Position numbers and translations under genes: made by a program. Under the pieces are notes generated by a model. That model was not told where the DNA came from, ran no database searches, and saw only the letters and a program-made list of their open reading frames with translations. Positions 41,326-56,882 of a stretch of DNA of 64,000 nt are shown piece after piece. The first letter of the stretch is position 1. Each line of letters opens with the position of its first letter. Origin of the DNA: an uncultured bacterium (GTDB taxonomy: Bacteria; Omnitrophota; Omnitrophia; Omnitrophales; Aquincolibacteriaceae); contig CAYLPP010000005.1 in the NCBI GenBank assembly GCA_964385615.1, forward strand, positions 26,130 to 90,129, written 5' to 3'.

Positions 41326-42076
41326 AAAAATATCAATTTTAATTCCCGCCTTTAATTCCGAAAAAACGATTCGGAACACGCTGGAGTCCGTCAAATGGGC
41401 GGATGAGATCCTGGTTTGCGATTCCTGGAGCACCGACCGCACGCTCGAAATTGCCCGAGAGTACGGTGCCCGGGTTATCCAGCATGAGTACATCAATTCC
41501 GCGCTTCAAAAAAATTGGGCTATTCCGCAATGCGCGCACGAATGGGTGCTGATTGTTGACACGGATGAAGTTGTGGAGGATGAACTTAAAAAAGAAATCC
41601 AATCCGTTCTGCGGAAACCCGACCCTGGTACGGATGGGTATTGGATTCCGCGCAAAAACTTTATCTATGGAAAATGGATGCGCCACGGCGGGATTTACCC
41701 CGATCTTCAGCTGCGGTTTTTCCGCCGCGATAAAGGCCTTTACGAGACCCGCGAAGTCCACGCTCATTTAAAAGTTTCCGGCAGAGCGGGACGGTTTAAC
41801 GGACATTTTCTTCATGAGGGATTTAAAGATTTTAAAACATGGACACTCAAGCTCGACCGGTATGTCCGTTACGAGACCGACGAATTGATTAAACAAAATA
41901 AAAAATTCCGCCTTTCCCGGGTCACGGTTTACCCGGTTCTGGTTTTTGCGCGCAGTTACTTTTGGCAGAGAGGATTCTTGGAAGGCTATCGCGGGTTTCT
42001 TTTAGCGGTTCTGGACGCTTTTTACTATTACGCGACTTACGCCCGGCTTTACGAGAGACAGAAAAAGATTGGCTGA
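41318..42076 (+). CDS. Glycosyltransferase family 2
   Basis: ISILIPAFNSEKTIRNTLESV … VCDSWSTD … VDTDE. The internal ATG 41318 gives an 8-nt overlap with the acetyltransferase. Confidence 0.75.
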   Translation: MPEKISILIPAFNSEKTIRNTLESVKWADEILVCDSWSTDRTLEIAREYGARVIQHEYINSALQKNWAIPQCAHEWVLIVDTDEVVEDELKKEIQSVLRKPDPGTDGYWIPRKNFIYGKWMRHGGIYPDLQLRFFRRDKGLYETREVHAHLKVSGRAGRFNGHFLHEGFKDFKTWTLKLDRYVRYETDELIKQNKKFRLSRVTVYPVLVFARSYFWQRGFLEGYRGFLLAVLDAFYYYATYARLYERQKKIG

Positions 42077-43262
42077 TAAAATAAAAATCGCTTTCCTGAT
42101 GCAGGAATCCCGTATGGGCGGGATCGAGTACAACTCCGTCCACCTGGCTGAAAAAATGAATCTTAAAAGATTTGATATCGTTTTTTTGTGCCCGGGAGAA
42201 GGTAAACTGCCTGAACTTCTAAGAAGTAAAAAAATCCCTTTCTTGTTTTACCGGCGGCCGGGTTTCTTTTCCACCAGTGTCCGGATCGGGGGAAACTATT
42301 TTTTCAATCCTTTCGCGACGGCCTGGAATTTCCTGTCTTTTTTTGTGATTACCTCCGGGCTCGCCGGAATTTTGAAAAGGGAAAATTTTAAAATTATTTT
42401 CACAAAAGGACTTCTGGCTAATTTTTACGGAGGTTTCGCGGCGCGCGCCGCTTCCATACCTTGCGTTTGGGATATGCAGGAGATCGTTTCAAACAGAAAA
42501 GCCTTCGGTTTATTTTCTATGATTCAGAATATTTGGGCGGTTTTAACCGTTAACCGGATTCTCGCGTCCTCCGAAGCGATTCGAAATCAATTTTGCGGAG
42601 CTGTAAGACGTAAAACCTCTGTAGTTCCAAATGGCATCGATACGGAATTTTATAAACCCGTTACGGGGGTTTCGGAAGTGAGGCGCGAGTGGAAGTTAAC
42701 CTCTGAGGAAGTGTTGATCAGTCATATTGCCAGACTGACTTACTGGAAAGGGCAAAAGGATTTTTTGAAAGCCGCGGCGGAGATCGCCAAAAAAATGCCT
42801 CGCGTAAAGTTCGCGGTTGTCGGATCTCCGGTATTTGAAAACCATGCTTATGAGCAGGAGATAAGACAGTTAGCTTCCGAGCTTGGTCTTGACGGCCGCG
42901 TGCTGTTTCCCGGGTTCCGGAACGACTTAAAAGAGGTGTTGTCGGCTTCAGATATTTTTGTTCATTCTTCGACGGAGCCGGAAGGGTGTCCGATTACCCT
43001 GATAACCGCTATGTCCATGGGCGTTCCATCGGTTATCACCGGCGTTGAGGGCAATACGGAGATTGTCTCCTCGCAAGACCAGGCTTTGGTGGTTTCTCCG
43101 GGGAAACCGGAAGAAATCGCGGCGGCGCTTTTGCGGATTCTGAACGATCCGGAACTCGCGGATAAAATGAGAAAAAGCGCTCGGAAAAGAGCGGTCGAGA
43201 GACATTCGATCGAAAGTTATGTCAGGGGCTGCGAAGGGGTGTTTGAAAATATTGCAAAATAG
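42069..43262 (+). CDS. Glycosyltransferase family 4 (GT-B)
   Basis: EGCPITLITAMSMGVPSV motif. TTG start. Confidence 0.7.
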   Translation: MADKIKIAFLMQESRMGGIEYNSVHLAEKMNLKRFDIVFLCPGEGKLPELLRSKKIPFLFYRRPGFFSTSVRIGGNYFFNPFATAWNFLSFFVITSGLAGILKRENFKIIFTKGLLANFYGGFAARAASIPCVWDMQEIVSNRKAFGLFSMIQNIWAVLTVNRILASSEAIRNQFCGAVRRKTSVVPNGIDTEFYKPVTGVSEVRREWKLTSEEVLISHIARLTYWKGQKDFLKAAAEIAKKMPRVKFAVVGSPVFENHAYEQEIRQLASELGLDGRVLFPGFRNDLKEVLSASDIFVHSSTEPEGCPITLITAMSMGVPSVITGVEGNTEIVSSQDQALVVSPGKPEEIAAALLRILNDPELADKMRKSARKRAVERHSIESYVRGCEGVFENIAK

Positions 43263-44244
43263 AAAAAAAATATTTTTTGTCTGCCAGGGAAGAAGAAGTT
43301 TTTTTGAGACGGACATTTCCATTCTTCGGGAGCATTTTCAGACGGACGTTTTTGATCTTTATCCTCCGTCAGCGGCGCATATTCCCGGAATATGGAGAGG
43401 TGTTTCCAGAGCGGACATTGTTTTTATCTGGTTTTTAGGCAGGCACGCGGTTCTTCCGCTAATTATAGCCCGGGTTTTGAATAAGAAAATCGTTCTTGTG
43501 GCCGGAGGCTGGGACGTAGCGGATTGTCCCGAAATTAATTATGGGCTGATGCGCAACGGGCCGTTTCATTTTTTGATTAAATTTCTTTTTACGCTTCCGC
43601 ATAAGGTTCTGGCGGTTTCTCAGTCCAATCTTCGGGAAATTCAAATGAACGCGGAAGTGCCGGCATCTAAAACAGAGCTGATTTATCACGGAATCGAAGA
43701 CGTGCCGGATGCCGGCGAAACGATTCAAAAAGAAAAAAAAGTTATTACGGCCGGTGAAATCACCCGGAGCAATTTACGGCGTAAGGGACTGGAGGCTTTT
43801 GTCAGGTGCGCGGCTCGTTTCACGGATGTTCCGTTTGTCCTGGCCGGAAAAGATTGCGGAGACGGCGCGTTGGAATATCTAAAGAGTATCGCGCCGGCAA
43901 ACGTGGTTTTTACCGGTTTTTTATCGCGGGAGGAACTTGACCGGCAGATGAAAAGCGCTGCCGTTTACGCGCAATTTTCTTTTCACGAAGCTTTCGGGCG
44001 TTCGGTTGCCGAAGCCATGCTTTTTGAATGCGTTCCTGTCGTCACGGACCGCGGGGCTTTGCCGGAAGTGGCCGGAGATGCGGGATATGTTGTTCCTTAT
44101 GGAGATGAAAATGCCTATGCGGACAGGATCTTGAAGGCGTTGAATGACACGCAGAAAGGCCTCGCGCCGCGAAAGCGGGTCCTAAAGCTTTTTTCTTATG
44201 AACAGCGGAATGATGCTCTAAAGAGGCTGGTTGACGGGTTATGA
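43219..44244 (+). CDS. Glycosyltransferase, GT-B fold (GT4-like)
   Basis: EAFGRSVAEAMLFECVPVV motif. Start uncertain: ATG 43219 overlaps the preceding gene by 44 nt, and an in-frame TTG lies at 43252. Confidence 0.6.
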   Translation: MSGAAKGCLKILQNRKKIFFVCQGRRSFFETDISILREHFQTDVFDLYPPSAAHIPGIWRGVSRADIVFIWFLGRHAVLPLIIARVLNKKIVLVAGGWDVADCPEINYGLMRNGPFHFLIKFLFTLPHKVLAVSQSNLREIQMNAEVPASKTELIYHGIEDVPDAGETIQKEKKVITAGEITRSNLRRKGLEAFVRCAARFTDVPFVLAGKDCGDGALEYLKSIAPANVVFTGFLSREELDRQMKSAAVYAQFSFHEAFGRSVAEAMLFECVPVVTDRGALPEVAGDAGYVVPYGDENAYADRILKALNDTQKGLAPRKRVLKLFSYEQRNDALKRLVDGL

Positions 44245-44951
44245 AAAAACAAACCATGGATGAAGTTGAGAGAATCCGCGGGGAATACGCGCGTAGAGAA
44301 AAGGAGTTTCCTCCGGGCTTTTACGCCTCCGCCGGAGATACCCTGCTTTACAGGACAAGGTGCGGAGCCGTTTTGAATTTGCTCAAATCAAACGGAATGA
44401 TCCCTTTGGCCGGAAAAAAAATACTCGAGGTCGGATGCGGCGAGGGCGCGTGGTTTTCGAGTTTTAAAGAATGGGGGGCCGAAGAATCCAGTTTATTCGG
44501 AGTCGATTTTATTCCTGAAAAAATCAGCAGTATCCGGCGGAAGTTTCCGTCCGCGAAGACTGAAATTGGTGAAGCTTCCAGTCTTAGGTGGGCGGATCAC
44601 TCCTTTGATATCGTGCTTCAATCGACGCTTTTTAGCTCTGTCCTCAGTCCGGAACTTAAGCGCAGAATCGCTGATGAAATGATTCGGGTGTTAAAACCGG
44701 GAGGAAAAATCATTTGGTATGATTTTTTTTGTAACAATCCCTGGAATCCAAATGTTAAAGGGGTTGGATTGAGCGAAATCAAAGATCTTTTTCCGGAAAG
44801 CGCGTTGAAATACAGCCGAATTACGCTTGCACCGCCTTTGGCTAGAAAGCTTGCCGGGAGTTTCCCGTCGCTTTGCGTTTTTCTGGAAAAGCTGAGCATT
44901 TTTAACACGCATTATCTGATTTTGATTCAGCCTGGAGCTCAAGTCATCTAA
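44241..44951 (+). CDS. Class I SAM-dependent methyltransferase
   Basis: ILEVGCGEGAWF motif I. ATGA overlap with the preceding gene. Confidence 0.7.
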   Translation: MKKQTMDEVERIRGEYARREKEFPPGFYASAGDTLLYRTRCGAVLNLLKSNGMIPLAGKKILEVGCGEGAWFSSFKEWGAEESSLFGVDFIPEKISSIRRKFPSAKTEIGEASSLRWADHSFDIVLQSTLFSSVLSPELKRRIADEMIRVLKPGGKIIWYDFFCNNPWNPNVKGVGLSEIKDLFPESALKYSRITLAPPLARKLAGSFPSLCVFLEKLSIFNTHYLILIQPGAQVI

Positions 44952-45958
44952 TGACGGATGAACTTCCTTTTGTATCAGTGATCATGCCTGTCCGTAACGA
45001 AGGCGCTTGTATGAAAGACGCTTTGGAAGCTGTGCTGCGGCAAGATTATCCCGCGGACCGGATGGAGGTAATAGCCGCGGATGGTATGTCGACCGATGCA
45101 ACCCGGAAGGTTATTGGAGAATTTCAAAAGAAATATACTAATTTAAAATTAATCGATAATCCCGGGAAGATTGTCAGTACCGGCTTGAACGCGGCGATTT
45201 TGAAATCCGCGGGCAGTATCATCATCCGCATGGACGGCCATACGGTCATGGCTCCTGACTATGTGCGCGCCTGTGTTTCGGCTTTAAAGCGGTCCAATGC
45301 CGATAATGTCGGCGGCAGGATGCGGGCCGAGGGGCGGGGTTTTGTCGGAAAAGCGATCGCATTGGCCACAAGCACTCCCTTCGGTGTCGGCGGAGCCCGG
45401 TTTCATTATTCCGAAAAAGAGGAGTGGGTGGATACGGTCTATCTTGGAGCCTGGAAGCGGGAAATTTTTGAAAAAATCGGACTCTTTGACGAAGAAATGA
45501 TCCGCAATCAGGATGATGAATGGAATTACAGACTGCGCAAGGCTGGCGGCCGGATCTTGATCAATCCCGGGATTCGATCGGTTTATTCGGTGAGGGAAAG
45601 TTTCACAGCGCTCTGGAAGCAGTATTTTAATTACGGCTTTTGGAAAGTCCGTGTTTTTCAAAAACATCCGGCTCAAATGCGCTTACGGCAATTCGTGCCC
45701 TCTTTATTCGTTTCGATTTTGATAGGTTCGGCTCTGATCAGTTTGATTTTAAAGAACCCCGCGTATTTTTTGACGCCGGCAACTATTTATTTGCTCGCGG
45801 ATCTTTGTGCGTCGCTTTGGATTTCAGGAAAATCCGGGACACGCTATTTGGCCGTTCTTCCCGCGGTTTTTTTGATTCTTCACGCAAGTTATGGAGCGGG
45901 GTTTCTTTGGGGAATTCTCAATGCTGCCAAGTTTAAAAAAGTCCGGGTTGAACCCTGA
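44951..45958 (+). CDS. Glycosyltransferase family 2 with C-terminal TM helices (GtrB/ArnC/DPM1-like polyprenyl-phosphate sugar synthase candidate)
   Basis: FVSVIMPVRNEGACM … VIAADGMSTD GT-A core plus two C-terminal TM helices (FVPSLFVSILIGSALISLIL…). Confidence 0.65.
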   Translation: MTDELPFVSVIMPVRNEGACMKDALEAVLRQDYPADRMEVIAADGMSTDATRKVIGEFQKKYTNLKLIDNPGKIVSTGLNAAILKSAGSIIIRMDGHTVMAPDYVRACVSALKRSNADNVGGRMRAEGRGFVGKAIALATSTPFGVGGARFHYSEKEEWVDTVYLGAWKREIFEKIGLFDEEMIRNQDDEWNYRLRKAGGRILINPGIRSVYSVRESFTALWKQYFNYGFWKVRVFQKHPAQMRLRQFVPSLFVSILIGSALISLILKNPAYFLTPATIYLLADLCASLWISGKSGTRYLAVLPAVFLILHASYGAGFLWGILNAAKFKKVRVEP

Positions 45959-45962
45959 AGAT

Positions 45963-47681
45963 ATGAATAAACTTTTTTCTGAAAATACGCGGACCGTAAA
46001 ATGGGGATTCTGGCTCATTTTAATGGCCGCGTTTTTTGTTAGGACTTGGGGGATTCATTACGGCCTTCCTTACGCTTACCACCCGGATGAACCTCTGAAC
46101 GTAAATGTCGTTTTGTCGATGGGATACCGCCACGATTTCAATCCTCATTGGTTCATTCATCCCGCATTGATGTTTTATTTCTTAGGGGTTCTCTACGGGG
46201 TTTATTTCGCGGCGGGGCTGGCCGCGGGATTTTGGAAGAACTCTCACGATTTTGGGCTGCTGATTCTTCAGGACCCTTCAAATATTTATTTAATAGGCCG
46301 AATAGCCTCCGCTCTTTTAAGCACCATAACCGTTGCCGCGGTTTACGAGGCGGGCCGGAAGCTGTTCGATAATAAAACAGGCTTAACGGCGGCCGTGATA
46401 CTTTCGTTTCTTTACCTGCCGGTTTACTTTGGGCACTTTATCAAAACAGAGTCGCTCCAAACCTTACTTACGCTTATTTCATTTCTGTTTTCGATCCGGA
46501 TTTTTGAACAAGGTAAAACGCGCGACTATTTGATTAGCGGTTTATTCGCAGGTTTGGCGGCGGCGGCTAAACAGCCGTCTCTTCTGGTGGTTCTTGCCGG
46601 TATTGCCGGGCATTTCTTCCATCAGAAAAAGACTCGCGGTTCCGAATGGGGAAAACTTCTGCTTCTTCTGACGGCGGCAGGCGCGGGTTTTTTTGCCGGC
46701 TCTCCATTCAGCGTTATTAAGTTCAGCGAAATGCTCCAAGCTTATCAGGGGATCAAATTTTACACGGTGGGAAGAGCGGGGGATTCTCTCCAGACCTGGT
46801 TTCATGATTTAATGACGGACATAGGCCCCGGCCCGCTTTTAGTTTTTTTTCTCTCATCGGTATATTTGATCATTAAGCCTTCGAAGAAAAAAAGCATGGC
46901 CGCGGTTTTCCCGTGGGCACACTTTATTCTGTTTTCTCTTCCAGCTTGGAAGAATGTACATTGGCAAGTCGTCACGATGCCTTTTTTTGCTTTATTGGCC
47001 GCTGATTTTTTGCAGGAGACAGCTTCGGCGGCCCGCCGTTTTTGGGGATGGAACCGCGGTTTAACGATGGCGCTGCTGGTTGGGGTGATGATGGCCGGCC
47101 CGTTGTTTCGGTGTCTTGCCTATGACGCTCAATTGAACCGGGTTGACACGAGAACTCAGGCTAAAGAGTGGATTGAACGGAATATTCCAGCCGGTTCAAA
47201 AATCGCGATGGAGCGCGGGCGGTTTATGAGCCGGAATGCACCGCCCATTAGAGAAAGCGCTGAAAGCATTCAGAGAAATTATATGTCTCCGCAAAGCCCT
47301 CTTTTGAAAAACGGATATCAAATGCAGGGTGTTGAAACTTATTACCGTATGCTGATTGAAGCGCAGGAGGGCAAGGGAGATGCCGCTTATGACATCATCC
47401 CTTTGTTTTATGAACCTTTTGGAGGGCGGGCTTCTTTTTGGCAAAGGCCGGCGATTCAATCTCTGGAGGAATATGAAGCCCAAAAAGTGGAGTATGTGAT
47501 TATTTCCGGCATGGCGGAGGAAAAGAGTTCGGCGGCCGGATCTTCCGAGGGGATGTGGGATCATTTTTACAAAAGTCTTCAAAATACAAATCGCGCGGTG
47601 TTGATTAAGGAATTTGTTCCGGGGAATCATCCTGGGCCGGCGATTCACATTTACCGGTTAAAAAAAGAGGAAAATACGTGA
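45963..47681 (+). CDS. GT-C fold membrane glycosyltransferase (GT39/GT83 ArnT/PMT-like)
   Basis: About 11 TM helices. First periplasmic loop YAYHPDEPLNV is a DE-type motif. C-terminal soluble domain. The track ORF begins at 45891; ATG 45963 avoids overlap with the preceding gene. Confidence 0.6.
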   Translation: MNKLFSENTRTVKWGFWLILMAAFFVRTWGIHYGLPYAYHPDEPLNVNVVLSMGYRHDFNPHWFIHPALMFYFLGVLYGVYFAAGLAAGFWKNSHDFGLLILQDPSNIYLIGRIASALLSTITVAAVYEAGRKLFDNKTGLTAAVILSFLYLPVYFGHFIKTESLQTLLTLISFLFSIRIFEQGKTRDYLISGLFAGLAAAAKQPSLLVVLAGIAGHFFHQKKTRGSEWGKLLLLLTAAGAGFFAGSPFSVIKFSEMLQAYQGIKFYTVGRAGDSLQTWFHDLMTDIGPGPLLVFFLSSVYLIIKPSKKKSMAAVFPWAHFILFSLPAWKNVHWQVVTMPFFALLAADFLQETASAARRFWGWNRGLTMALLVGVMMAGPLFRCLAYDAQLNRVDTRTQAKEWIERNIPAGSKIAMERGRFMSRNAPPIRESAESIQRNYMSPQSPLLKNGYQMQGVETYYRMLIEAQEGKGDAAYDIIPLFYEPFGGRASFWQRPAIQSLEEYEAQKVEYVIISGMAEEKSSAAGSSEGMWDHFYKSLQNTNRAVLIKEFVPGNHPGPAIHIYRLKKEENT

Positions 47682-47685
47682 GCTC

Positions 47686-48402
47686 ATGAAGTTATCTATT
47701 ATTATTCCCACCTACAATGAGTATGCCACGATTGAACAGCTGATCGAGTATGTGCAGTCAGTGCGGTATCCCGTCGAGCATGAAATTATTATTGTAGATG
47801 ACGCCTCCATTGACCGTACCTATGAGAAAGAAAAAATGCTGCGCATAAAAAGCAGAAAAGAAAAAAATAATATCAGGCTCTTTAAGAACAGAATTAACCG
47901 GGGTAAAGGGTACTCGATTAGAAAAGGGATTCGCCGGGCCTCGGGCGATATCATTATTGTTCAGGATGCTGACCATGAATATGACCCTCACGACATTCCG
48001 AAGCTTTTAGAACCCCTTTTGAAAAATGAAGCGCAGGTTGTTTACGGCAGCAGATTTCTGAACCGGCCTAAGCCGGAGAGAATGGCTTTCCCGAACTGGA
48101 TTGCCAACCGGTTTCTGACTTGGCTGACCAATCTCTTGTATGGTTTGAAGCTCACGGACATGGAGACCTGTTATAAAGCTTTTAAGGCGGACATTATTAA
48201 AGGTTTAAAGCTGAAGGCAAACCGTTTTACTTTTGAACCTGAAGTCACGGCGTTAATCGCGAAGAAAAGGATTAAAATCATTGAATTGCCAATCAGTTAC
48301 AGGGGAAGAACGGCTGAAGAAGGGAAGAAAATCAAAGCGAGAGACTTTTTTTTCGCGGTTCTTATTTTGATCCGTTACTGTTTTCCGGGAGGACGCGATT
48401 AG
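47686..48402 (+). CDS. Glycosyltransferase family 2, dolichyl/undecaprenyl-phosphate sugar synthase-like (DPM1/ArnC/GtrB class)
   Basis: LSIIIPTYNEYATIEQLI … IIIVDDAS … VQDADHEY, with a Lys/Arg-rich insertion. Confidence 0.65.
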   Translation: MKLSIIIPTYNEYATIEQLIEYVQSVRYPVEHEIIIVDDASIDRTYEKEKMLRIKSRKEKNNIRLFKNRINRGKGYSIRKGIRRASGDIIIVQDADHEYDPHDIPKLLEPLLKNEAQVVYGSRFLNRPKPERMAFPNWIANRFLTWLTNLLYGLKLTDMETCYKAFKADIIKGLKLKANRFTFEPEVTALIAKKRIKIIELPISYRGRTAEEGKKIKARDFFFAVLILIRYCFPGGRD

Positions 48403-48493
48403 AACCTTTTTAAAAATAACGTCAGCGGTCTTTATTTTTTATTCAGTTCTAGCGCTTTTTCTAGGTAAATTTCTGGAGATACCGACGGATACG

Positions 48494-49591
48494 GTGAATT
48501 ATTACTCGCCCCTGGCGGTGAATCTGCTTCACGGAAATGGATATTCTGTTTCCGGGCAGTTTGTAACGGTTTATCCGCCGGGTTTCCCTCTTTTTTTAGC
48601 GTTGATTTATAAAATAACCGGTTACGCGGGAACGGAGAATGCGGTTTATCCTTGGGCCGCGGCACTGCTTCAGGCTTTTTCCTGCGGATTTATTTATTTG
48701 TGCGCGCGGCTTTATCTTTTGGAACGGACCGCGGTTACGGCCGCTTTGCTTTTGGCTTGTTATCCCTTTTTTATGCTGTTAGGAGTAACCGAGTATGTTT
48801 GGACCGCTATGCCGCTGTTTCTTTCTCTGTTTTTTTCCGCCTCTTTTTTTTATTTAAAAACGAGATTAAAGAAAACCGGATTCCTTTTGATCTTTTCAGG
48901 CTTGTTGTTTGGGGCTGCCAGCCTGGTATGGCCTGGCGGGTCTTATCTCTGGGCTGTCATGGCAATACTCGGTTTGAGCTTTCAGTTTCAGCCTCTTAAA
49001 AAAACGCTGTGGATTGCGGTTTTCACTGGCGCCTTCTGGGTTTTACCAGCCTTCTGGCATGGGTATGTTATGAAGGCAACCGGCAAAAGCGTCTGGTTTT
49101 CTGAGAACTTGGTTGGTTCCATGAAGGACGGGTTAATCCGCCATGAGGGATCCAAATTGAGAAATTTTGAAACGGCCAAGGATGGGGAACGGCTTAACCA
49201 AGCGGGTTATTTTAAAACCTCCGGAGATTTTATAAGATTTTATTTTGAAGAATTACAGACTAAACCTAACGAAACAATACGGTTTATTCTGTTTAAGCTT
49301 TTCCGGCCCTGGTACGCCACGGATTCTGAAAAGCATGAACCGTGGATTTTTTTAATTCAGATTCCCTATTTATTTTTAGGTTTTTGGGGCGCGGTGTACG
49401 CCATCCGGCAGAGGCCCTTTTTGACGGTTTTTTCTGGGATGGTTATAGTTTATTTCTGGCTCGTTTCTTTTTCGGTTTTGTCGATACTTCGATACATGAT
49501 GCCCGCGATGGGATTTGTCATGATTTGGACCGCGGTTTCTATTGAGGCGATAGCCGGCAGCATAAGGGGGATCAAAAATGAAAAAATTTGA
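48494..49591 (+). CDS. Polytopic membrane protein, GT-C-like (PMT_2/ArnT-like) candidate; N-terminus probably incomplete as annotated
   Basis: YPPGFPLFLALIY and further TM helices. The GTG start at 48494 is preceded by 91 nt of in-frame open sequence that encodes a TM helix but has no canonical start. Confidence 0.45.
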   Translation: MNYYSPLAVNLLHGNGYSVSGQFVTVYPPGFPLFLALIYKITGYAGTENAVYPWAAALLQAFSCGFIYLCARLYLLERTAVTAALLLACYPFFMLLGVTEYVWTAMPLFLSLFFSASFFYLKTRLKKTGFLLIFSGLLFGAASLVWPGGSYLWAVMAILGLSFQFQPLKKTLWIAVFTGAFWVLPAFWHGYVMKATGKSVWFSENLVGSMKDGLIRHEGSKLRNFETAKDGERLNQAGYFKTSGDFIRFYFEELQTKPNETIRFILFKLFRPWYATDSEKHEPWIFLIQIPYLFLGFWGAVYAIRQRPFLTVFSGMVIVYFWLVSFSVLSILRYMMPAMGFVMIWTAVSIEAIAGSIRGIKNEKI

Positions 49592-50768
49592 TATTTGCGT
49601 GATCGGCGGATGCGGGCATGTCGGCCTGCCGCTAGCTCTTTGTTTCGCCCAGGAAGGAAAGCGTGTCGCTATTGTTGACGTAAACGAATCAGCGGTTCGA
49701 AAAATCCGGAGCGGAAAAATGCCGTTTAAGGATGAGGGGGGTGATGAAATTCTGCCCCGTGTTCTCCGGTCTAAAAAGTTAACTGTCGATACTGATCCCC
49801 GGCTGATTTCTGAAAGTGAAAATATTATTTTTGTGCTGGGCACTCCCGTTTCAACCCATCTTTATCCCTCTTACACGCAGTTTTACGAAACGCTTCAGCG
49901 GTACATGAAATATTTTAAAAAAGAACAGCTTATCGTTTTCCGGAGCACGCTGTTCCCGGGAAGCATGAAGACAATCCGGCAAATGTTCGCGGACGCCGGG
50001 CTTCGCGTTTCTCTGGCGTTCTGCCCTGAACGCGTGGCCGAAGGCCTTGCCATCCGTGAAATTTACGAACTCCCGCAAATCGTTTCCGCGTTTGACGCGA
50101 AAAGCCGCCGCCGCGCGAAGGCGCTCTTCTCCGTTTTTACCAAGGAACTGGTAGAGCTTGAACCTTTGGAAGCAGAGCTTGGAAAACTGTTTACTAATGT
50201 GTGGCGTTACATGAAATTCGCGATCGCCAATCAGTTTTACATGATCGCTAATGACAGCCGTCTGGACTTTTATAAGATTTACAACGCGATCGTCGGCGGG
50301 TATCCGCGGCTCAAGGATATGCCCCGCGCCGGATTTGCCGCCGGGCCCTGCCTGTTTAAAGACACCATGCAGCTGGCTTCTTTTACGGACAACAGGCTGT
50401 TTTTGGGGCACGCGGCCATGCTGATTAATGAAGGCTTGCCTAGCTATTTGATTACTCAGCTCAGAAAGCGGTTCTCTCTCGAGAAAAAGCGGGTGGGCAT
50501 TTTGGGGATGGCATTTAAAGCGGAATCAGACGACAGCCGGGAATCGCTGTCGTTCAAGCTTTTGAATATTCTCCAAAAGGACTGCCGGGCTGTTTACGTC
50601 ACGGACCCCTTCGTGAAAGATCCTAGAATTCTCCCGGTTCAAGAAGTCGTTAAGAAGAGCGACATTCTGATTATTGGCGCACCGCACCGCGAGTATAAAA
50701 AACTGAATCTTTCGAAAAAAACGGTAATTGACGTTTGGAACCTTTACGGCAAGGGAGGGCTGGTCTGA
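49578..50768 (+). CDS. Nucleotide-sugar dehydrogenase (UDP-glucose/GDP-mannose dehydrogenase family)
   Basis: N-terminal ICVIGGCGHVGLPLA Rossmann motif with the family's three-domain length (~396 aa). Confidence 0.75.
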   Translation: MKKFDICVIGGCGHVGLPLALCFAQEGKRVAIVDVNESAVRKIRSGKMPFKDEGGDEILPRVLRSKKLTVDTDPRLISESENIIFVLGTPVSTHLYPSYTQFYETLQRYMKYFKKEQLIVFRSTLFPGSMKTIRQMFADAGLRVSLAFCPERVAEGLAIREIYELPQIVSAFDAKSRRRAKALFSVFTKELVELEPLEAELGKLFTNVWRYMKFAIANQFYMIANDSRLDFYKIYNAIVGGYPRLKDMPRAGFAAGPCLFKDTMQLASFTDNRLFLGHAAMLINEGLPSYLITQLRKRFSLEKKRVGILGMAFKAESDDSRESLSFKLLNILQKDCRAVYVTDPFVKDPRILPVQEVVKKSDILIIGAPHREYKKLNLSKKTVIDVWNLYGKGGLV

Positions 50769-51793
50769 TGAAAGTTCTGGTGACCGGCGCGGCCGGATTC
50801 GTGATGGGCTATCTGACCGAAGAATTGCTTCGAGCCGGGCATGAGGTTGTCGGCGTGGATAATTTCTCAAAGTACGGGAGGGTCGCCCGAAGTTACGATC
50901 AGCATCCTAAATATCAATTTGTTCAGGGAGACTGTAAAGATGTTGAGCTGATGAAGCGTTTGGCTGAGGGGTGTGATCAGGTTGTCGCCGGAGCCGCGAT
51001 GATTGGGGGGATTTCCTATTTTCACCGCTTCGCGTATGACTTGCTGGCGGAAAACGAAAGGATTCTCGCGGCCACTTTTGACGGCGCCATCTCTGCTTTT
51101 AAAGCGGGAAAGCTTTCGAGGATTATCGTGATCTCTTCTTCAATGGTGTTTGAAAATACGCCTCACTTCCCGTCGCGCGAAGGCGATCAGCTTAAATCGC
51201 CTCCGCCTTCTTCAACTTATGGGTTTCAAAAACTCGCGAGCGAGTTTTTTGCCAAAGGGGCATGGGAGCAGTATCAGCTTCCTTACACGATTTTAAGACC
51301 GTTCAATTGTGTCGGCATCGGAGAGAAAAAAGCCGTTCAGGAAGGCGGACGGATTGAAAAAGGGAATCTGGACCTCGCGCTCAGCCATGTGGTTCCGGAT
51401 TTGATCGTGAAAGTTCTCAAAGGGCAGGACCCTCTGGAGATCTTGGGTGATGGAACCCAGGTGCGCCATTACACCTACGGAGGCGATCTTGCCCGCGGGA
51501 TCCGCCTTGCCATGGAAAGCTCAAAAGCGGTGAATGAAGATTTTAATCTTTCCACGCCGGTTTCCACCACCGTTCTTCAGCTCGCGGAAATGATTTGGAA
51601 AAAAATCAACAGCCCTGGAAAACCTTTCCGGTATGTCAGCGCGGAAAAATTCGCTTACGATGTGCAGAAAAGAGTTCCTGACACTGAAAAAGCAAAAAAA
51701 ATTCTAGGTTTCAGCACTCAGACATCGCTTGATGAAATGCTCGACATTGTCATCGCGTGGATTAAAGACCAGCTCAAGCAGGGTACTTTCTGA
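50768..51793 (+). CDS. NAD-dependent epimerase/dehydratase (extended SDR; UDP-glucuronate epimerase/decarboxylase-type candidate)
   Basis: MKVLVTGAAGFVMGYL … YGFQK (YxxxK). TGATG overlap with the dehydrogenase. The track ORF from 50735 runs through the dehydrogenase 3' end. Confidence 0.7.
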   Translation: MKVLVTGAAGFVMGYLTEELLRAGHEVVGVDNFSKYGRVARSYDQHPKYQFVQGDCKDVELMKRLAEGCDQVVAGAAMIGGISYFHRFAYDLLAENERILAATFDGAISAFKAGKLSRIIVISSSMVFENTPHFPSREGDQLKSPPPSSTYGFQKLASEFFAKGAWEQYQLPYTILRPFNCVGIGEKKAVQEGGRIEKGNLDLALSHVVPDLIVKVLKGQDPLEILGDGTQVRHYTYGGDLARGIRLAMESSKAVNEDFNLSTPVSTTVLQLAEMIWKKINSPGKPFRYVSAEKFAYDVQKRVPDTEKAKKILGFSTQTSLDEMLDIVIAWIKDQLKQGTF

Positions 51794-51816
51794 ACAGCTT
51801 CCCAAAAATATCCATC

Positions 51817-52506
51817 GTGATTCCCGTCTACAATGAAGGCGGAAATATTCCGGCTTTGTTTACGGAGCTGAAAAAAAGTATCGGAAGCGGAAGCGAAATC
51901 CTGATTTGCTATGATTTTGAAGAAGACAACACGCTTCCTGAAGCCCGGAAATACCAGGCGGATTTCCCGAAGCTCAGATTTGTTAAGAATCAATTTGGAT
52001 CAGGATGTCTGGGCGCCATTAAATCCGGGTTTAAAGAAGCTTCCGGACCGGCAGTGCTTGTCATGATGGCTGATCTCTCCGACGATTTGAGTTCCGTAAG
52101 CCCCATGATGAATCTGTTTGAAGAGGGATGCGCGGTTGTGGCCGCTTCCCGCTATACGGCCGGAGGGCGTCAAATCGGAGGACCTCCCGTTAAAAAATTC
52201 CTTTCGAAAATTGCCGGGCTCTCGCTTCATTACTTTACCGGCTTGCCTTCGGTAGACCCCACGAATAATTTCAAACTCTACGCCAAATCTTTTTTGGAAA
52301 AGACGCGGATAGAAAGTGACGGCGGTTTTGAGCTGGGCCTGGAATTGACCGTGAAAGCTTATTTAAGCGGATCGAAAGTCGGAGAATGCCCGACCGTTTG
52401 GCGTGACCGGACGGCTGGAGTATCGAGGTTTCAATTCAAGAAATGGCTTCCGAAATATCTTCGATGGTACTTGTACGCAGTGAAGGGGCGCTTTTTCAAA
52501 AAATAA
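51817..52506 (+). CDS. Glycosyltransferase family 2, polyprenyl-phosphate sugar synthase-like
   Basis: (KIS)IVIPVYNEGGNIPALF … ICYDFEEDNT. The frame is open upstream of GTG 51817, so the true start is probably a few codons earlier (non-ATG). Confidence 0.6.
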   Translation: MIPVYNEGGNIPALFTELKKSIGSGSEILICYDFEEDNTLPEARKYQADFPKLRFVKNQFGSGCLGAIKSGFKEASGPAVLVMMADLSDDLSSVSPMMNLFEEGCAVVAASRYTAGGRQIGGPPVKKFLSKIAGLSLHYFTGLPSVDPTNNFKLYAKSFLEKTRIESDGGFELGLELTVKAYLSGSKVGECPTVWRDRTAGVSRFQFKKWLPKYLRWYLYAVKGRFFKK

Positions 52507-52507
52507 A

Positions 52508-54448
52508 ATGCAATCTACAGTGCTAAAAAATGAAATGCCCACGCTTTTTCGCTGGAGCTGGTTGGCGGTTTTTGGAATAGCCGTCGGCGCCGCGGTTTTT
52601 TTCCGTGCTTTTCCTTCCTTGAGCGGCGATGAATATAACTCTCTGATCGGGGCGGGAGATCTCAGGCTGAATCTGCACGCGGTCGGTTATTTTTCGCAGC
52701 TGAAAATTTGGAGCTGGATCAGCGGGTCTGATTTATGGCTTCGCGGGTTATCTTTAATTTGGGCTGCCGCGGGGCTTTGGGCTTTTATGAAACTGGGAGA
52801 AAAAACGGAACTTCCGCGTCCGGTGATTCTTAACAGCGGTTTATTGCTGGCGGTAAACGCTTTTTTTCTCCAGTACGCTTTTCAGGTACGGTTTTACGCG
52901 TTATTCGCGGCCGCGAGCACCCTCTGGTTCGCTCTGCTGGCCGGAATCGTTGTCCGCCGTGAAAAGGTTAATTGGGTTTTGCTTTTATTTTCGGCGCTTC
53001 TTCTGGTGTCTTCTCATTTATTTGGGTGGATGGTCATCGCTATGGGAGGTATTCTGGTTTTTTGGTTCCGCTGCACCAGAACGACAAAGATAATCTTACT
53101 CGCGTCTATTTTTATTCTTCTCGCGTTATTTTACACCAAACCAGTTCAGGATATTTTGACCCGCCTGGTTTATAAAACGACACTTCCGCTTGAACAAATT
53201 CCGGCTGCGGGTCCCAGAGGGTTGACCACGGCTATGATTTTTAAATTCCCTCTGACTTTTTTCTTTTTCGCTTTAGGCGAAAGAGTTTACCCTCTTTCCT
53301 GGATTTCGGCGGCTGGGGTTCCTATTATAGGTACGGCGTTCATTTTGGGCTGTATCCGTCTGAGACATTTTCCTTTTCTGAGTTCAATCGCGGTTCTTTG
53401 CCTGGCGAGTATCGCTGCGTTATTTCTGATTTTTGATCCGCTGGCGCCGCCTTCACTTCAGGGTGCCGCGGCCCGTTACGTCATTTACGCGCTTCCTTTT
53501 TTCGTGATGATTTGCGCGCTGGGCGCGCATGAGCGCCCGGTTCTTTGTTTTTTGGTGTGGGGTATTACGCTTTTTGCTTTTGCTTCATTCACAAAACCTT
53601 TCTGGAGTTCCAGTCAGATCGATTTAATGGATTGGGAAAAACAGTTTAGGTCCGATATTGTTGACCCTGCGAAAACATGCGTGGTTTCGGATGGAAGAGC
53701 CCAAGGAGCCGTGACCCGTTATCTTCCCGCCGGCGTACGTCTTGCGGATAATCCCGAAGCTTGCCTGGGCTTTGACCGCGTTTTAATCGCTTCGGCGAAT
53801 TTTGATTTAAAAGCCATCCGGTATCTGGATTCTCAAAACGCGAAACTTGCCTCGGATTACCAACTTGTTCGAAACACCAACGCTTTTCCCAATCAATTAA
53901 CAGTTTATGAGAAAAAAGCTTCAAAAAATTTAACCTTAGATTTTGCACCGGACCGGCTGGGTCTTCCGGAACAAGACCTTCGTTTTCCTCTTGTGATTCG
54001 AAACGGCCGGTTACTGAATGGTTTTGTCCGGCTGGATGAATTCCGATCCGCGTACGAATTTCAGTCCGTTCCAAAGGGAAAATTCCGTCTTTTAATCAAT
54101 TATCGGGAACTGGGCCTCGTGACTCCGGGCGAGCCGGTCGCGGCTGTCCGGTGGCACAGCCTCGACGGAACTTTTACTGAAACCCCTCTGCGCGCCGGTA
54201 TTGAAACGGCTGCCTGGGACGGCCATTGCGGCAGCTGCGCTGAAGAAGCAGGCTGGACAAAACGGCTGCATTTACTTGGAGCCCAAAGTTACCCCGGAGC
54301 CTACCGCCAGTACCGGGCTGGAATTTGGTCTGTGGAAATGGTTTCGCCGTCTTCCGCGGTTAAAGCAGAGCTAGTGAAACTCCATCCAAATGCCGTTATT
54401 TACTTTTGGGGAAATGAACCTTCAAGCCCGGAAAAAACCAATGCTTAA
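52508..54448 (+). CDS. GT-C-like polytopic membrane protein with a C-terminal soluble domain (putative periplasmic-acting glycosyltransferase)
   Basis: About 11 TM helices in the first 380 aa. The first loop has SLSGDEYNSLIGAGDL (DE motif). C-terminal domain of about 260 aa. Confidence 0.45.
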   Translation: MQSTVLKNEMPTLFRWSWLAVFGIAVGAAVFFRAFPSLSGDEYNSLIGAGDLRLNLHAVGYFSQLKIWSWISGSDLWLRGLSLIWAAAGLWAFMKLGEKTELPRPVILNSGLLLAVNAFFLQYAFQVRFYALFAAASTLWFALLAGIVVRREKVNWVLLLFSALLLVSSHLFGWMVIAMGGILVFWFRCTRTTKIILLASIFILLALFYTKPVQDILTRLVYKTTLPLEQIPAAGPRGLTTAMIFKFPLTFFFFALGERVYPLSWISAAGVPIIGTAFILGCIRLRHFPFLSSIAVLCLASIAALFLIFDPLAPPSLQGAAARYVIYALPFFVMICALGAHERPVLCFLVWGITLFAFASFTKPFWSSSQIDLMDWEKQFRSDIVDPAKTCVVSDGRAQGAVTRYLPAGVRLADNPEACLGFDRVLIASANFDLKAIRYLDSQNAKLASDYQLVRNTNAFPNQLTVYEKKASKNLTLDFAPDRLGLPEQDLRFPLVIRNGRLLNGFVRLDEFRSAYEFQSVPKGKFRLLINYRELGLVTPGEPVAAVRWHSLDGTFTETPLRAGIETAAWDGHCGSCAEEAGWTKRLHLLGAQSYPGAYRQYRAGIWSVEMVSPSSAVKAELVKLHPNAVIYFWGNEPSSPEKTNA

Positions 54449-56882
54449 AAGACCTCTGGATATTTTATTGAGTTTGTTTTTAATTGTTCTTGTCGCGCCT
54501 CTTTTTCTGCTGATTTCCATCCTGATCCGTCTGGATTCCCCGGGGCCGGTTATTTTTAAACAGAAAAGAACCGGTTTGAACGGAACGGAATTTACCCTGT
54601 TTAAATTCCGCACAATGATTGAAGACGCTCCAAGCATGGGGCCGGTGATTACCGCTAAAAATGATCCGCGCGTGACCCAAATCGGCCGTGTTCTCCGCTG
54701 GACCAAACTGGATGAACTGCCTCAGCTGCTCAATGTGCTCAAAGGCGATATGAGCATGGTCGGCCCCAGGCCTGAAGTTCCCCAAATGACGGCGCTTTAT
54801 AAAGGCGAACAGACGAAAGTATTTTCCGTCCGGCCCGGCATTATGGGATCAAGTCAAATTAACAACCGTGATGAAGAGCAGATGCTGATAGAAGGGGATC
54901 AGGTTGAGGATTTTTACGTGCAGAAAATTCTGCCGGATAAAATTAAAAACGATCTGACCTATATTCATAATCCCGACCCTTTCAAGGATCTTAAGATTCT
55001 TTTTGGCGGAGGAGTCACGCTTTTATTCAGCTCGCTTAAACTTCCTTATATCTTCGAGAGTAAACGCCGGGTTCTTTTCCTCCTTTTCGACCTGCTGATT
55101 TCCGGCCTGTCTTTCTGGTTCGGTTTTCTTCTGCGTTTTGAAGGCCGGGTTCCGCACGCCGATGCCGTCATTTTTCAAACCCTTCTTCCCCTGATGCTGA
55201 TTGTGCGCGCTCCGTGTTTTATTTCATTCGGGCTTTATCAAACGCTTTGGCAGTATCTGGGCATTCAGGAATTGCTTTCGATTATCCGGGCCGTTATCGT
55301 CGGGTCTTTTATTTTTCCGGTTATTCCGTTTTTGTTCCAGATGGATTTCCCGCCGCGGTCGGTTTTAATCACCGACGGACTGCTTTTGATTACCTGTCTG
55401 GGCGGTTCGCGCGTTATTTTCAAGTTAACCGCTGAAAGATTGAGGCGCCCGATTCTAGGCTCCAAGAAAAACGCTTTGATTATTGGAGCGGAAGACACCG
55501 GGGAATTTCTGGTGCGTGAATTTATTAAAAACCCGGCGGCCGGTTACCGGCCTGTCGCGTTTCTGGACAATGATGCCGGTAAACTGGGAGTCCGGATTCA
55601 CGGCGTGAAAGTCATGGGAAAAATTTCCCAGCTCAGCCAGGTGGTGCGGGTCCGTAAAGTTGACGAAGTGATTATCGCGCTTTCCCAGGCTTCGGCGAAT
55701 GAAATCCGGGAAATTGTTAAGACCTGCGGAGAGCTGAAACTTCCTTCTCGAATCGTACCGCCGGCTTCGGCGCTTCTCTCACCGCAGATTTTGCCCTTGA
55801 GGCTCCGGCCGGTTGATGTTTCGGATCTTTTGGGCCGTGAATTGGTGCAGGCGGATCTTCCCGGAATTCAGAATCTCCTGAGGGGGAAGAAAGTCCTGGT
55901 CACAGGCGCGGGCGGTTCTATCGGCTCTGAGTTGAGCAAAATTATTTTTCAAAATCATCCCGAAGAGTTGATCTTGGTCGACAACTCCGAAAGCAGTTTG
56001 TATGACATTGAAATGGAGCTCAAGGCGAAACCGCTGGGCACGAATATCGTGACTTATCTGGCCAGCGTGGCTGACGGCGAAACGTTGGAAAAAATTTTCA
56101 AACGCCATAAACCGCAGATTGTTTATCACGCCGCGGCTTACAAGCATGTGCCCCTTATGGAAATTCATTTTGCGCAGGCGGTGAAGAACAATATTTGGGG
56201 GACGAAGATTGTCGCGGATCTGGCCAAGAAAAACGGGGCTGAAAGCTTTGTGCTGATTTCAACGGATAAAGCGATTAATCCGACAAGCATTATGGGCGCC
56301 ACCAAAAGAGTCTGCGAGATTTACGCCCAAAGTTTAAAGGGCGGAAAAACCCGCTTTCTCGCGGTGCGGTTCGGCAACGTTTTCAACAGCAAAGGCAGTG
56401 TGGTTCCTCTGTTTAGAAAGCAGATTGAAATGGGCGGGCCGGTCACGGTGACGGACCCCGAAGTCACGCGTTATTTCATGGATGTTTCCGAGGCTGTTTT
56501 TTTAATTCTGCAAGCCACGATTTTAGGATCCGATTCTGAAATTTTTGTTCTGGAAATGGGTCAACCGGTCAAAATTGCCGATCTCGCGCGGGATTTGATC
56601 CGTTTAATGGGGGTGCCTTCAGACCGGATGCCTGTCAGATTTACGGGTTTAAGGCCGGGTGAAAAACTTCATGAAGAACTGCAGTTGGGAAGTGAAACGG
56701 CCAGCGCGACCTCGCATCCCAAAATTAAAATCTGGAAACCCGGAAAAAATCAGGGTATTGATATTCATTCGGGAATCGAACATTTGCTCAAGCTTGTGGA
56801 GCAAGGCGCTTCCCGCGACGCGGTTATTCAGGAGTTCAAAAAGATAGTGCCTGAATACGCGCCTTGGAACCCTCAGATTTAA
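54441..56882 (+). CDS. Fusion protein: PglC-like monotopic phosphoglycosyltransferase (Bac_transf) + PglF/WbpM/CapD-like UDP-HexNAc 4,6-dehydratase
   Basis: N-terminal LDILLSLFLIVLVAPLFLLI re-entrant helix, DELPQL, and GDMSMVGPRPE PGT motifs. Then four TM helices and a CapD-type SDR domain (VLVTGAGGSIGSEL … YHAAAYKHV … STDKAINP). Start ATG 54441 (MLKRPLD). Confidence 0.8.
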   Translation: MLKRPLDILLSLFLIVLVAPLFLLISILIRLDSPGPVIFKQKRTGLNGTEFTLFKFRTMIEDAPSMGPVITAKNDPRVTQIGRVLRWTKLDELPQLLNVLKGDMSMVGPRPEVPQMTALYKGEQTKVFSVRPGIMGSSQINNRDEEQMLIEGDQVEDFYVQKILPDKIKNDLTYIHNPDPFKDLKILFGGGVTLLFSSLKLPYIFESKRRVLFLLFDLLISGLSFWFGFLLRFEGRVPHADAVIFQTLLPLMLIVRAPCFISFGLYQTLWQYLGIQELLSIIRAVIVGSFIFPVIPFLFQMDFPPRSVLITDGLLLITCLGGSRVIFKLTAERLRRPILGSKKNALIIGAEDTGEFLVREFIKNPAAGYRPVAFLDNDAGKLGVRIHGVKVMGKISQLSQVVRVRKVDEVIIALSQASANEIREIVKTCGELKLPSRIVPPASALLSPQILPLRLRPVDVSDLLGRELVQADLPGIQNLLRGKKVLVTGAGGSIGSELSKIIFQNHPEELILVDNSESSLYDIEMELKAKPLGTNIVTYLASVADGETLEKIFKRHKPQIVYHAAAYKHVPLMEIHFAQAVKNNIWGTKIVADLAKKNGAESFVLISTDKAINPTSIMGATKRVCEIYAQSLKGGKTRFLAVRFGNVFNSKGSVVPLFRKQIEMGGPVTVTDPEVTRYFMDVSEAVFLILQATILGSDSEIFVLEMGQPVKIADLARDLIRLMGVPSDRMPVRFTGLRPGEKLHEELQLGSETASATSHPKIKIWKPGKNQGIDIHSGIEHLLKLVEQGASRDAVIQEFKKIVPEYAPWNPQI

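Follow-up and report, generated by a model that had tools for sequence, protein, structure and literature searches.

Two predicted donor synthases and three GT-C-type membrane proteins form a probable extracytoplasmic glycosylation unit in an Omnitrophota glycan gene cluster

The 64,000-nucleotide stretch analysed here (the window; positions 26,130 to 90,129 of the forward strand of contig CAYLPP010000005.1, GenBank assembly GCA_964385615.1) derives from an uncultured bacterium of the Omnitrophota. It contains one very large plus-strand glycan cluster of ~47 kb, at window positions ~10.2-56.9 kb, with eight genes, designated g1 to g8, at its 3' end. In an initial annotation these were read as three tandem pairs, each consisting of a family 2 glycosyltransferase (GT2) that loads a sugar onto polyprenyl phosphate and a membrane transferase of the GT-C fold, accompanied by a dehydrogenase and a short-chain dehydrogenase/reductase (SDR). 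The eight open reading frames (ORFs) are indeed present in the order first described, at or near the coordinates then assigned, all on the plus strand in a dense array, neighbouring ORFs being separated by -14 to +4 nt. Together with the methyltransferase gene that precedes them they are as follows:

44241..44951, + strand: MT, a methyltransferase dependent on S-adenosylmethionine (Pfam Methyltransf_25/11)
44951..45958, + strand: g1, a membrane GT2 of 335 aa with ~3 C-terminal transmembrane segments (TMs) (Pfam GT2, Glyco_tranf_2_3)
45963..47681, + strand: g2, a PMT_2-family GT-C of 572 aa whose C-terminal domain is extracytoplasmic (PMT_2 63.1 bits, E 4.7e-17, cut-off 26.1)
47686..48402, + strand: g3, a TM-less DPM1/AglJ/ArnC-like GT2 of 238 aa (PDB and NCBIfam matches)
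48398..49591 (listed as 48494-49591), + strand: g4, a compact GT-C of the PMT_2 family, 397 aa from ATT 48398 or 365 aa from GTG 48494
49578..50768, + strand: g5, a nucleoside diphosphate-sugar 6-dehydrogenase of 396 aa (TIGR03026, 254 bits)
50768..51793, + strand: g6, an extended SDR of the epimerase/dehydratase type, 341 aa (Pfam Epimerase, 127 bits), the ATG of which, at 50768, overlaps the g5 stop
51790..52506, + strand: g7, a TM-less DPM1-like GT2, 229 aa from GTG 51817 or 238 aa if it starts at CTG 51790 (PDB and NCBIfam matches)
52508..54448, + strand: g8, a membrane protein of predicted GT-C fold, 646 aa, with ~10-13 TMs and a C-terminal β-rich domain (AlphaFold2 model and Foldseek)

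The three membrane proteins g2, g4 and g8 are all of the GT-C type, as had been proposed, and each carries a conserved acidic residue just after the first transmembrane segment (TM1). The assignment follows from the Pfam match of g2, from the family-wide PMT_2 matches and the high-confidence model of g4, and from the predicted fold of g8; profiling and modelling revealed no failure of GT-C fold prediction for any of the three. In g2, TM1 is directly followed by the motif GLP..Y.YHPDE, in which, across 12 homologues, E43 never varies and conservation of D42 is at least 90%; the homologues carry the name phospholipid carrier-dependent glycosyltransferase. The two DE-type motifs to which attention had been drawn, HPDEPLN in g2 and SGDEYNS in g8, both come immediately behind TM1, and each is conserved within its family.

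The g4 protein itself is borderline for PMT_2 (PF13231; 25.3-25.5 bits against the cut-off of 26.1). Its family comprises 40 matches, and all 19 members that were aligned match PMT_2 at E<=1e-3; D40 (within the sequence PTDT), Y45, P47, A49 and G55 are invariant in the family alignment. The AlphaFold2 (AF2) model computed from the extended reading frame has a predicted local distance difference test score (pLDDT) of 93.9 and a predicted template-modelling score (pTM) of 0.93. Comparison of this model with the PDB using Foldseek yielded GT-C or GT-C-related membrane enzymes as the top 38 matches and as every significant match, with TMq values of up to 0.61. These include STT3/AglB/PglB, ArnT, Pmt4, ALG3/9, Aft and Emb, and ArnT exhibits the lowest root-mean-square deviation (rmsd) among the full-length structural matches (6.8 Å). 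Searches of g2 and g4 against the PDB sequences with phmmer returned nothing meaningful. An assignment of g4 as an oligosaccharyltransferase, considered in view of its top fold matches STT3, AglB and PglB, was rejected: the protein is only 397 aa long, is devoid of an extracytoplasmic catalytic domain and is a member of the PMT_2 family.

Fold prediction was required for g8 because sequence and hidden Markov model (HMM) searches of the PDB gave nothing meaningful. Neither the single sequence (phmmer) nor the family HMM matched a PDB entry, no NCBIfam model was matched, and none of the 15 family members has a Pfam match at E<=0.1. Profile-profile alignment (hhalign) with the g4 family reached a probability of only 18%. 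The AF2 model of g8 has a pLDDT of 81 and a pTM of 0.74, and its top 23 Foldseek matches in the PDB are all GT-C proteins (ALG12, PglB, STT3, EmbC, ArnT, Pmt4, ALG9 and AftB), with E-values of 8e-6 to 1e-2. The family motif FP.L.GDEY.S lies directly after TM1, with D41/E42 at least 90% conserved, and the C-terminal β-rich domain conserves the sequence LPEQDL and a Cys pair. In the model this domain gives weak structural matches to carbohydrate-binding modules (CBMs) and β-sandwich proteins, which suggests a glycan-binding module; GT-Cs with carbohydrate-binding modules have been described (PMC11127046). The family counts 15 matches among 5.8 billion (5.8e9) sequences, and an HMM search of 1.8 billion representatives retrieved 123 clusters (50% identity) at E<=1e-30 and 225 at E<=1e-10. 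The named genomes in which it occurs are Chloroflexota and one metagenome-assembled genome (MAG) of the Planctomycetota. By its modelled fold, g8 is a rare, undescribed GT-C family.

All three GT2s of the region, g1, g3 and g7, had been likened to DPM1, ArnC and GtrB. For g3 and g7 the likeness holds. The best PDB match of g3 is the dolichyl-phosphate mannose synthase of P. furiosus (PfDPMS), with an E-value of 8.2e-27 over residues 1-223, followed by ArnC (1e-13) and GtrB (sll0501, 7.7e-8), and the NCBIfam models matched are AglJ (114 bits), ArnC (67) and PpgS (60). PfDPMS is also the best PDB match of g7 (2.5e-17, residues 1-218), with GtrB and ArnC at ~1e-5 (GtrB sll0501, 1.2e-5); the NCBIfam matches of g7, to PgfS, a dolichyl-phosphate-hexose transferase and ArnC, are all weak. 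These matches support the placement of g3 and g7 in the DPM1/ArnC/GtrB clade as predicted polyprenyl-phosphate sugar synthases. The third GT2, g1, matches other models (EpsD, PgaC and MftF) and no such structure, and is treated below. A GT2 of the cluster core (41321-42076), considered as the missing DPM1-like synthase, was rejected, being GmaR/TarS-like instead.

The dehydrogenase and the SDR, g5 and g6, had been taken as a donor supply, which is plausible, with g5 described as Ugd-like, which is not borne out. The best PDB matches of g5 are Cap5O (3.8e-36) and the P. horikoshii UDP-ManNAcA dehydrogenase, versus 1e-15 to 1e-18 for the Ugd entries; by sequence, g5 is nearer the UDP-N-acetylmannosamine (UDP-ManNAc) dehydrogenases than Ugd. 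The g6 protein consists of a single SDR domain, and its match to the C-terminal domain of ArnA is weak (42.5 bits versus a cut-off of 777). Its PDB matches to UDP-hexose 4-epimerase, UDP-glucuronic acid 4-epimerase and UXS are about equal (1e-21 to 1e-25). Decarboxylases of the UXS/ArnA type presumably carry a glutamate at the position that aligns with the g6 stretch SSSMVFE, and no glutamate is read at that position in g6. An epimerase is the likelier assignment for this reason, and g6 is most likely a 4-epimerase.

A metagenome scan with g7 retrieved 30 loci from soil and marine contigs (L017-L041 among them), of which the 18 that span 4 kb or more were scored. In 17 of these 18, the g7-like gene has a dehydrogenase resembling g5 (38-60% identity) next to it or close by, and an SDR is nearby in most; in L017 and L028, orthologues of g6 (72-74% identity) are located between the g5-like and g7-like genes. 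Other frequent companions of the g7-like genes include a methyltransferase, PMT_2 GT-Cs (L027, L028 and L030), a GtrA-family gene (L040) and polytopic proteins of 490-740 aa that match no Pfam family. Hence g5-g6-g7 are best read as a conserved module predicted to make a lipid-phosphate-linked, uronic-type sugar.

The start codons of g4 and g7 deserve comment. The g4 ORF previously placed at 48494 exists, but as listed from its GTG it lacks TM1 and the family-invariant Asp. The homologues of g4 start ~35 residues further upstream, in a stretch that encodes both of these elements. The reading frame is open from a stop at 48368-70, with no ATG, GTG or TTG before GTG 48494. At 48398 an ATT codon shares bases with the g3 stop (ATTAG); 5 nt upstream of this codon lies a Shine-Dalgarno sequence, GGGAGGA (48387-93). 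In two related loci, L008 and L009, the g4 relatives start at the TTG of a TTGA overlap, and that TTG is lost in the window. For g7, initiation at the earliest canonical codon, GTG 51817, would cut off most of strand β1, and the in-frame sequence upstream encodes NSFPKISI. CTG 51790 overlaps the g6 stop (CTGA), at which point L017 has TGATG, with its ATG eight codons upstream of the position of GTG 51817. Possible explanations for these starts are coupled initiation at near-cognate codons, decay of the genes or an error of assembly.

It is rather unlikely that the unit is partly decaying, with g4 and/or g7 no longer translated at full length after loss of their start codons and with fewer decorations made than the genes imply. 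The truncated products expected from GTG 48494, without TM1 and the invariant Asp, and from GTG 51817, without most of β1, would be consistent with decay, as would the lost TTG of the g4 relatives and the upstream ATG of L017. Both frames, however, are open through the missing N-terminal parts and still encode the conserved residues, with no internal stops or frameshifts. ATT 48398, with its strong Shine-Dalgarno sequence and its overlap with the g3 stop, and CTG 51790, with its overlap with the g6 stop, fit translational coupling at near-cognate starts, and an error in the MAG consensus is also possible.

Gene order was compared by local BLAST of 15 related loci (L002-L016). The comparison involves two further genes of the cluster:

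39596-40777, + strand: the sole DegT aminotransferase gene, 9 kb upstream, in the conserved core beside an acetyltransferase gene
54390..56882, + strand: g9, a small phosphoglycosyl transferase fused to a PglF-like 4,6-dehydratase, 830 aa (Pfam Bac_transf 194 bits, CoA_binding_3, Polysacc_synt_2 357 bits)

The distal DegT aminotransferase that had been mentioned is thus accounted for, and g9 is, on the strength of its domains, the predicted priming enzyme of the core glycan. The g9 fusion is kept in L007-L009 (orthologues of 61-82% identity), and the two parts are separate genes in the Chloroflexota-type loci. A conserved core runs in the order GT2, GT4, acetyltransferase, Wzy_C, core GT2, GT4a, GT4b, [GT-C genes], g1, MT and priming transferase, where GT4 denotes family 4 glycosyltransferases. 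The core block (window 38191-44951; loci L002-L016) is common to this genome, to Chloroflexota MAGs and to one Planctomycetota MAG. The closest relatives, L008 and L009, share the GcvT/MutY/ThyA flank and a DegT that is 82-85% identical, and their order is GT4b-g1-MT-g3-g4-g9, without g2 and g5-g8. L007 has the order g2-g1-MT-(g3 fused to an MT)-g4-DegT-g9. The adjacency of g3 and g4 is kept in all three, with the TTGA stop/start overlap in L008 and L009. In the Chloroflexota-type loci a g8-like gene is found, usually followed by a distant g4-like GT-C and then by g1-MT; there is no DPM1-like GT2 within 10 kb, and L002 has a GtrA gene. The g1-MT duo is a constant element of the core, with or without g2. 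As g1, MT and the g4-like and g8-like genes belong to the core from Chloroflexota to this genome, and g2, g3 and g5-g7 are variable additions, the description of the decoration genes as modules appended to the polymer assembly genes was too simple.

These comparisons bear on another reading of g3 and g7, namely that they are cytoplasmic GT2s which extend a lipid-linked oligosaccharide, in the manner of the archaeal Agl enzymes, while the GT-Cs use other donors or are polymerases or en-bloc transferases of lipid-diphosphate glycans. The absence of a TM segment from g3 and g7 is consistent with such a role. So are the surroundings of the closest g7 relative, L017, where GT4 genes and no multi-TM gene are found, the g8-like and g4-like GT-Cs that elsewhere lack DPM1-like partners, and the oligosaccharyltransferases STT3, AglB and PglB at the top of the g4 fold matches. 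The characterised near relatives of g3 and g7 (PfDPMS, ArnC, GtrB, PpgS and AglJ), however, make lipid-phosphate sugars. Moreover, relatives keep g3 and g4 adjacent, with the stop of one overlapping the start of the other, GtrA and PMT_2 genes are found alongside g7-like modules, and g4, with its 397 aa, lacks the large extracytoplasmic domain of the oligosaccharyltransferases and superimposes with the lowest rmsd, 6.8 Å, on ArnT. This reading is therefore considered quite improbable.

The first gene, g1, has the architecture initially described, a GT2 domain followed by ~3 C-terminal TMs, and it falls outside the polyprenyl-phosphate synthase clade to which it had been assigned. The best NCBIfam matches are EpsD, PgaC and MftF; of the models of the DPM1-type clade only AglJ and PgfS appear, at ~19-20 bits. 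The best PDB match of g1 is 6yv7 (PcManGT), and at E<=0.01 no DPMS, ArnC or GtrB entry is matched. The g1 family conserves the motifs DGH, RNQDDE.NYR and QY.QYG.WKV as well as the three C-terminal TMs. In alignment, the acidic motif RNQDDE falls at the general base of GT2s that use hydroxyl acceptors, and in PcManGT this base is D223 (PMC12595478). The g1-like gene is flanked, on one side or the other, by MT in L002-L004, L006-L010, L012 and L014. A methyltransferase accompanies g1 in every related locus, including those without g2, and the two are mostly close to the priming transferase. This nearness fits an early step on a lipid-diphosphate-linked sugar, and on sequence grounds g1, which lies outside the DPM1 clade, is probably a transferase that works early and at the cytoplasmic face, with the lipid-linked primer as its substrate.

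Three strict pairs, g1-g2, g3-g4 and g7-g8, would demand that g1 be a TM-anchored synthase like GtrB or ArnC, with MT possibly modifying the lipid-linked sugar. Its architecture, an N-terminal GT2 domain with C-terminal TMs, is that of GtrB, and its closest solved relative, PcManGT, is reported to be a dolichyl-phosphate-dependent enzyme. In addition, a g1-like gene lies directly beside a GT-C in the majority of related loci (L003/L010, L004/L005, L006, L007, L012, L013 and L014), and the Chloroflexota-type loci have GT-Cs but no DPM1-like GT2, L002 with GtrA among them. It is this adjacency of g1 and GT-Cs in loci without DPM1-like genes that leaves the arrangement in three strict pairs some probability. 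Nevertheless it is unlikely. DPMS, ArnC and GtrB structures, which g3 and g7 match strongly, are not matched by g1 at E<=0.01, and g1 keeps the acidic RNQDDE motif that aligns with the general base of the hydroxyl-acceptor enzymes (PMC12595478). L008 and L009 have g1-MT without g2, and the GT-C in these loci is paired with a g3-like gene. The position of g1-MT, mostly close to the priming transferase, is as expected for an early step on a lipid-diphosphate-linked sugar. The first of the three pairs, g1-g2, is therefore not supported, since g1 matches other models and keeps its MT neighbour where g2 is missing.

A bolder variant, to which only a slim chance is given, makes g1 and its constant MT neighbour the true donor-forming partner of the g8- and g4-type GT-Cs, to which they would deliver a possibly methylated lipid-linked sugar. 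The trio of GT2, MT and GT-C is conserved in Chloroflexota, one Planctomycetota MAG and this genome. If correct, this variant would establish a novel kind of polyprenyl-phosphate sugar synthase, with a new GT-C family as its partner.

The region is probably a multi-component transmembrane (extracytoplasmic) glycosylation unit, comprising two donor synthases and three GT-Cs, rather than three strict pairs. The proposal of three GT2/GT-C pairs survives in that there are three GT-Cs and a conserved g3-g4 pair; it falls short in that only two of the three GT2s are DPM1-like. From the family and fold assignments, the motif conservation, the gene order and the synteny described above, we infer as follows which donors are made, which transferases they serve, what the acceptor is, how the lipid-linked sugars are flipped and on which side of the membrane each step takes place. 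On the cytoplasmic face, g3 would draw on a nucleotide sugar to charge polyprenyl phosphate with a sugar. The 6-dehydrogenase g5 and the SDR g6, most likely as a 4-epimerase, would make a nucleotide sugar of the uronic-acid type, which g7 would place onto polyprenyl phosphate. The lipid-linked monosaccharides would then be flipped by a flippase encoded elsewhere. On the other side of the membrane, previously called periplasmic and better read as extracytoplasmic, g2, g4 and g8 would transfer the sugars to the already exported glycan, each relying on the acidic residue conserved in the loop that follows TM1. The likeliest assignment is that g3 serves g4, possibly also g2, and that g7 serves g8. 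The decoration would not involve g1 and MT; presumably they belong to the core and elongate or modify the lipid-linked primer that g9, DegT and the acetyltransferase produce.

Several findings weigh against this reading of the region as a glycosylation unit. The adjacency of g7 and g8 is seen in this window only; relatives of g8 elsewhere have no DPM1-like GT2 within 10 kb, and the closest g7 relative, L017, has no multi-TM gene within 8 kb. Both g3 and g7 are without a TM segment, so that their membrane association is assumed. The TM-scores of the g8 model against solved GT-Cs are low (0.27-0.46), and no tie at the sequence level connects g8 to any solved or curated GT-C. At the points where their homologues start, g4 and g7 have no canonical start codons, and poor expression or decay of one or both may follow. 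Finally, neither a flippase nor a GacJ-like helper is encoded in the window. The absence of a small GtrA/ArnEF-type flippase ORF had been remarked upon at the outset and is confirmed: the cluster contains no small multi-TM ORF like GtrA or ArnE/F, the only two such ORFs in the window (2516-2926 and 61391-61747) lie outside it, and Pfam scans of the window gave no GtrA, Wzx or MATE match.

From its 5' end the cluster begins with a NusG-like gene and two Wzm/Wzt ABC exporter sets. These are followed by about twenty GT4/GT2 genes, methyltransferases and one acyltransferase. The 3' part comprises the Wzy_C protein (38191), DegT, a hexapeptide acetyltransferase, a GT2, two GT4s, the methyltransferase (44241), g1-g8 and g9. 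Downstream lie the housekeeping genes GcvT-like, MutY, ThyA, DHFR and Nuo, and the window has no rRNA or tRNA genes. The gene at 10178-10726, a NusG-family paralogue that heads the cluster, suggests antitermination of the RfaH/UpxY type for the ~47-kb operon. The Wzm/Wzt sets are located at 10813-14149 and 29287-32243; the second Wzm, of 581 aa, is fused to an N-terminal GT2 domain, and both Wzt proteins carry the Wzt_C carbohydrate-binding domain. The protein encoded at 15881-17080 matches the plant-type Reversibly Glycosylated Polypeptide family (3.7e-12) and the STELLO family, and is of a kind uncommon in bacteria; the former family presumably includes UDP-arabinose mutases. The 647-aa product of 32240-34183 combines a GT4 glycosyltransferase with a polysaccharide deacetylase domain, and a flavin amine-oxidase-like protein, by a weak Pfam match, is encoded at 23698-25014 amid GT4 genes.

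Among known systems, those that glycosylate the cell-wall polymers of Gram-positive bacteria provide a close parallel. There a GT2 makes an undecaprenyl-phosphate (C55-P)-linked sugar, and a GT-C whose outer loop bears an acidic motif passes the sugar on to an exported polymer (PMC8035078). The present unit is like these systems (CsbB/GtcA/YfhO, GtlA/GtlB, CsdAB/CD/EF with CflA, and GacI/J/K/L of S. pyogenes) in combining predicted GT2 synthases with predicted acidic-motif GT-Cs. It differs in that three GT-Cs and two synthases are found in one operon-like block within a glycan cluster, in that both synthases are TM-less with no GacJ-like helper or flippase nearby, and in that one donor has dehydrogenase and SDR genes of its own. 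Furthermore, g8 is unrelated by sequence to YfhO or the PMT_2 proteins. L. lactis has several GT-A/GT-C pairs per genome, CsdAB/CD/EF, served by one unlinked shared flippase, CflA; in L. monocytogenes a single synthase, GttA, serves two GT-Cs; GacI is a TM-less synthase that works with the separate membrane protein GacJ; and some GT-Cs are without any Pfam domain (PMC8035078). Thus, all of the unusual aspects of the unit, that is, multiple pairs, a shared flippase, TM-less synthases and GT-Cs that are Pfam-less or carry CBMs, have precedents (PMC8035078, PMC11127046).

The locus had also been compared to a triplicated Gtr/Arn-like system. In its logic g5-g8 resembles the Arn pathway, with a dehydrogenase, an SDR, a GT2 lipid-phosphate synthase and a GT-C, and g3 and g7 match ArnC as g4 and g8 match the ArnT fold. 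In contrast to Arn, no genes for a formyltransferase, ArnB, ArnD or another deformylase, or ArnE/F and small multidrug resistance (SMR) proteins lie by the module; g5 is nearer the UDP-ManNAc dehydrogenases; and ArnC is anchored by TMs, which g7 is not. An assignment to the Arn pathway was rejected, as g6 is a single SDR, DegT lies 9 kb upstream in the core, and there is no ArnA, ArnD or ArnE/F. Gtr and the GT136 pentofuranose systems (Kelly et al. 2024) add side chains on the extracytoplasmic side after polymerisation, including to glycans of the ABC-transporter pathway, and a carbohydrate-binding module forms the C-terminal part of some of their GT-Cs (PMC11127046). Unlike Gtr, the window contains no GtrA or MATE flippase, and in contrast to the TM-anchored GtrB, g3 and g7 are TM-less and match GtrB more weakly than DPMS. 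Unlike the GT136 systems, the donors would come from DPM1-like GT2s rather than from synthases dependent on phosphoribosyl pyrophosphate. By membership, then, the locus is no triplication of Gtr or Arn, given that GtrA, a TM-anchored GtrB, the ArnA formyltransferase, ArnB and ArnD are all missing.

The rhizobial and Aquifex Rgt system may offer the best functional analogy for a g5-g6-g7 module feeding g8. In Rgt a uronic acid is carried on polyprenyl phosphate, and one synthase, RgtE, which makes bactoprenyl-phosphate galacturonic acid, supplies the several GT-Cs RgtA-D/F (PMC7663294). The known lipid A and core sites of Rgt are, by comparison, unlikely as the acceptor here. The locus is probably a compact and well-resolved case of glycan decoration on the extracytoplasmic side from beyond the commonly studied model organisms, and it brings to light the rare GT-C family of g8, a widespread dehydrogenase-SDR-GT2 donor module and a core glycan cluster that crosses phyla. 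They provide candidate founders of new CAZy GT-C families as well as possible donors for glycoengineering. No current concept is overturned: the locus fits the known multi-component transmembrane glycosylation systems, with the addition of one undescribed GT-C family.

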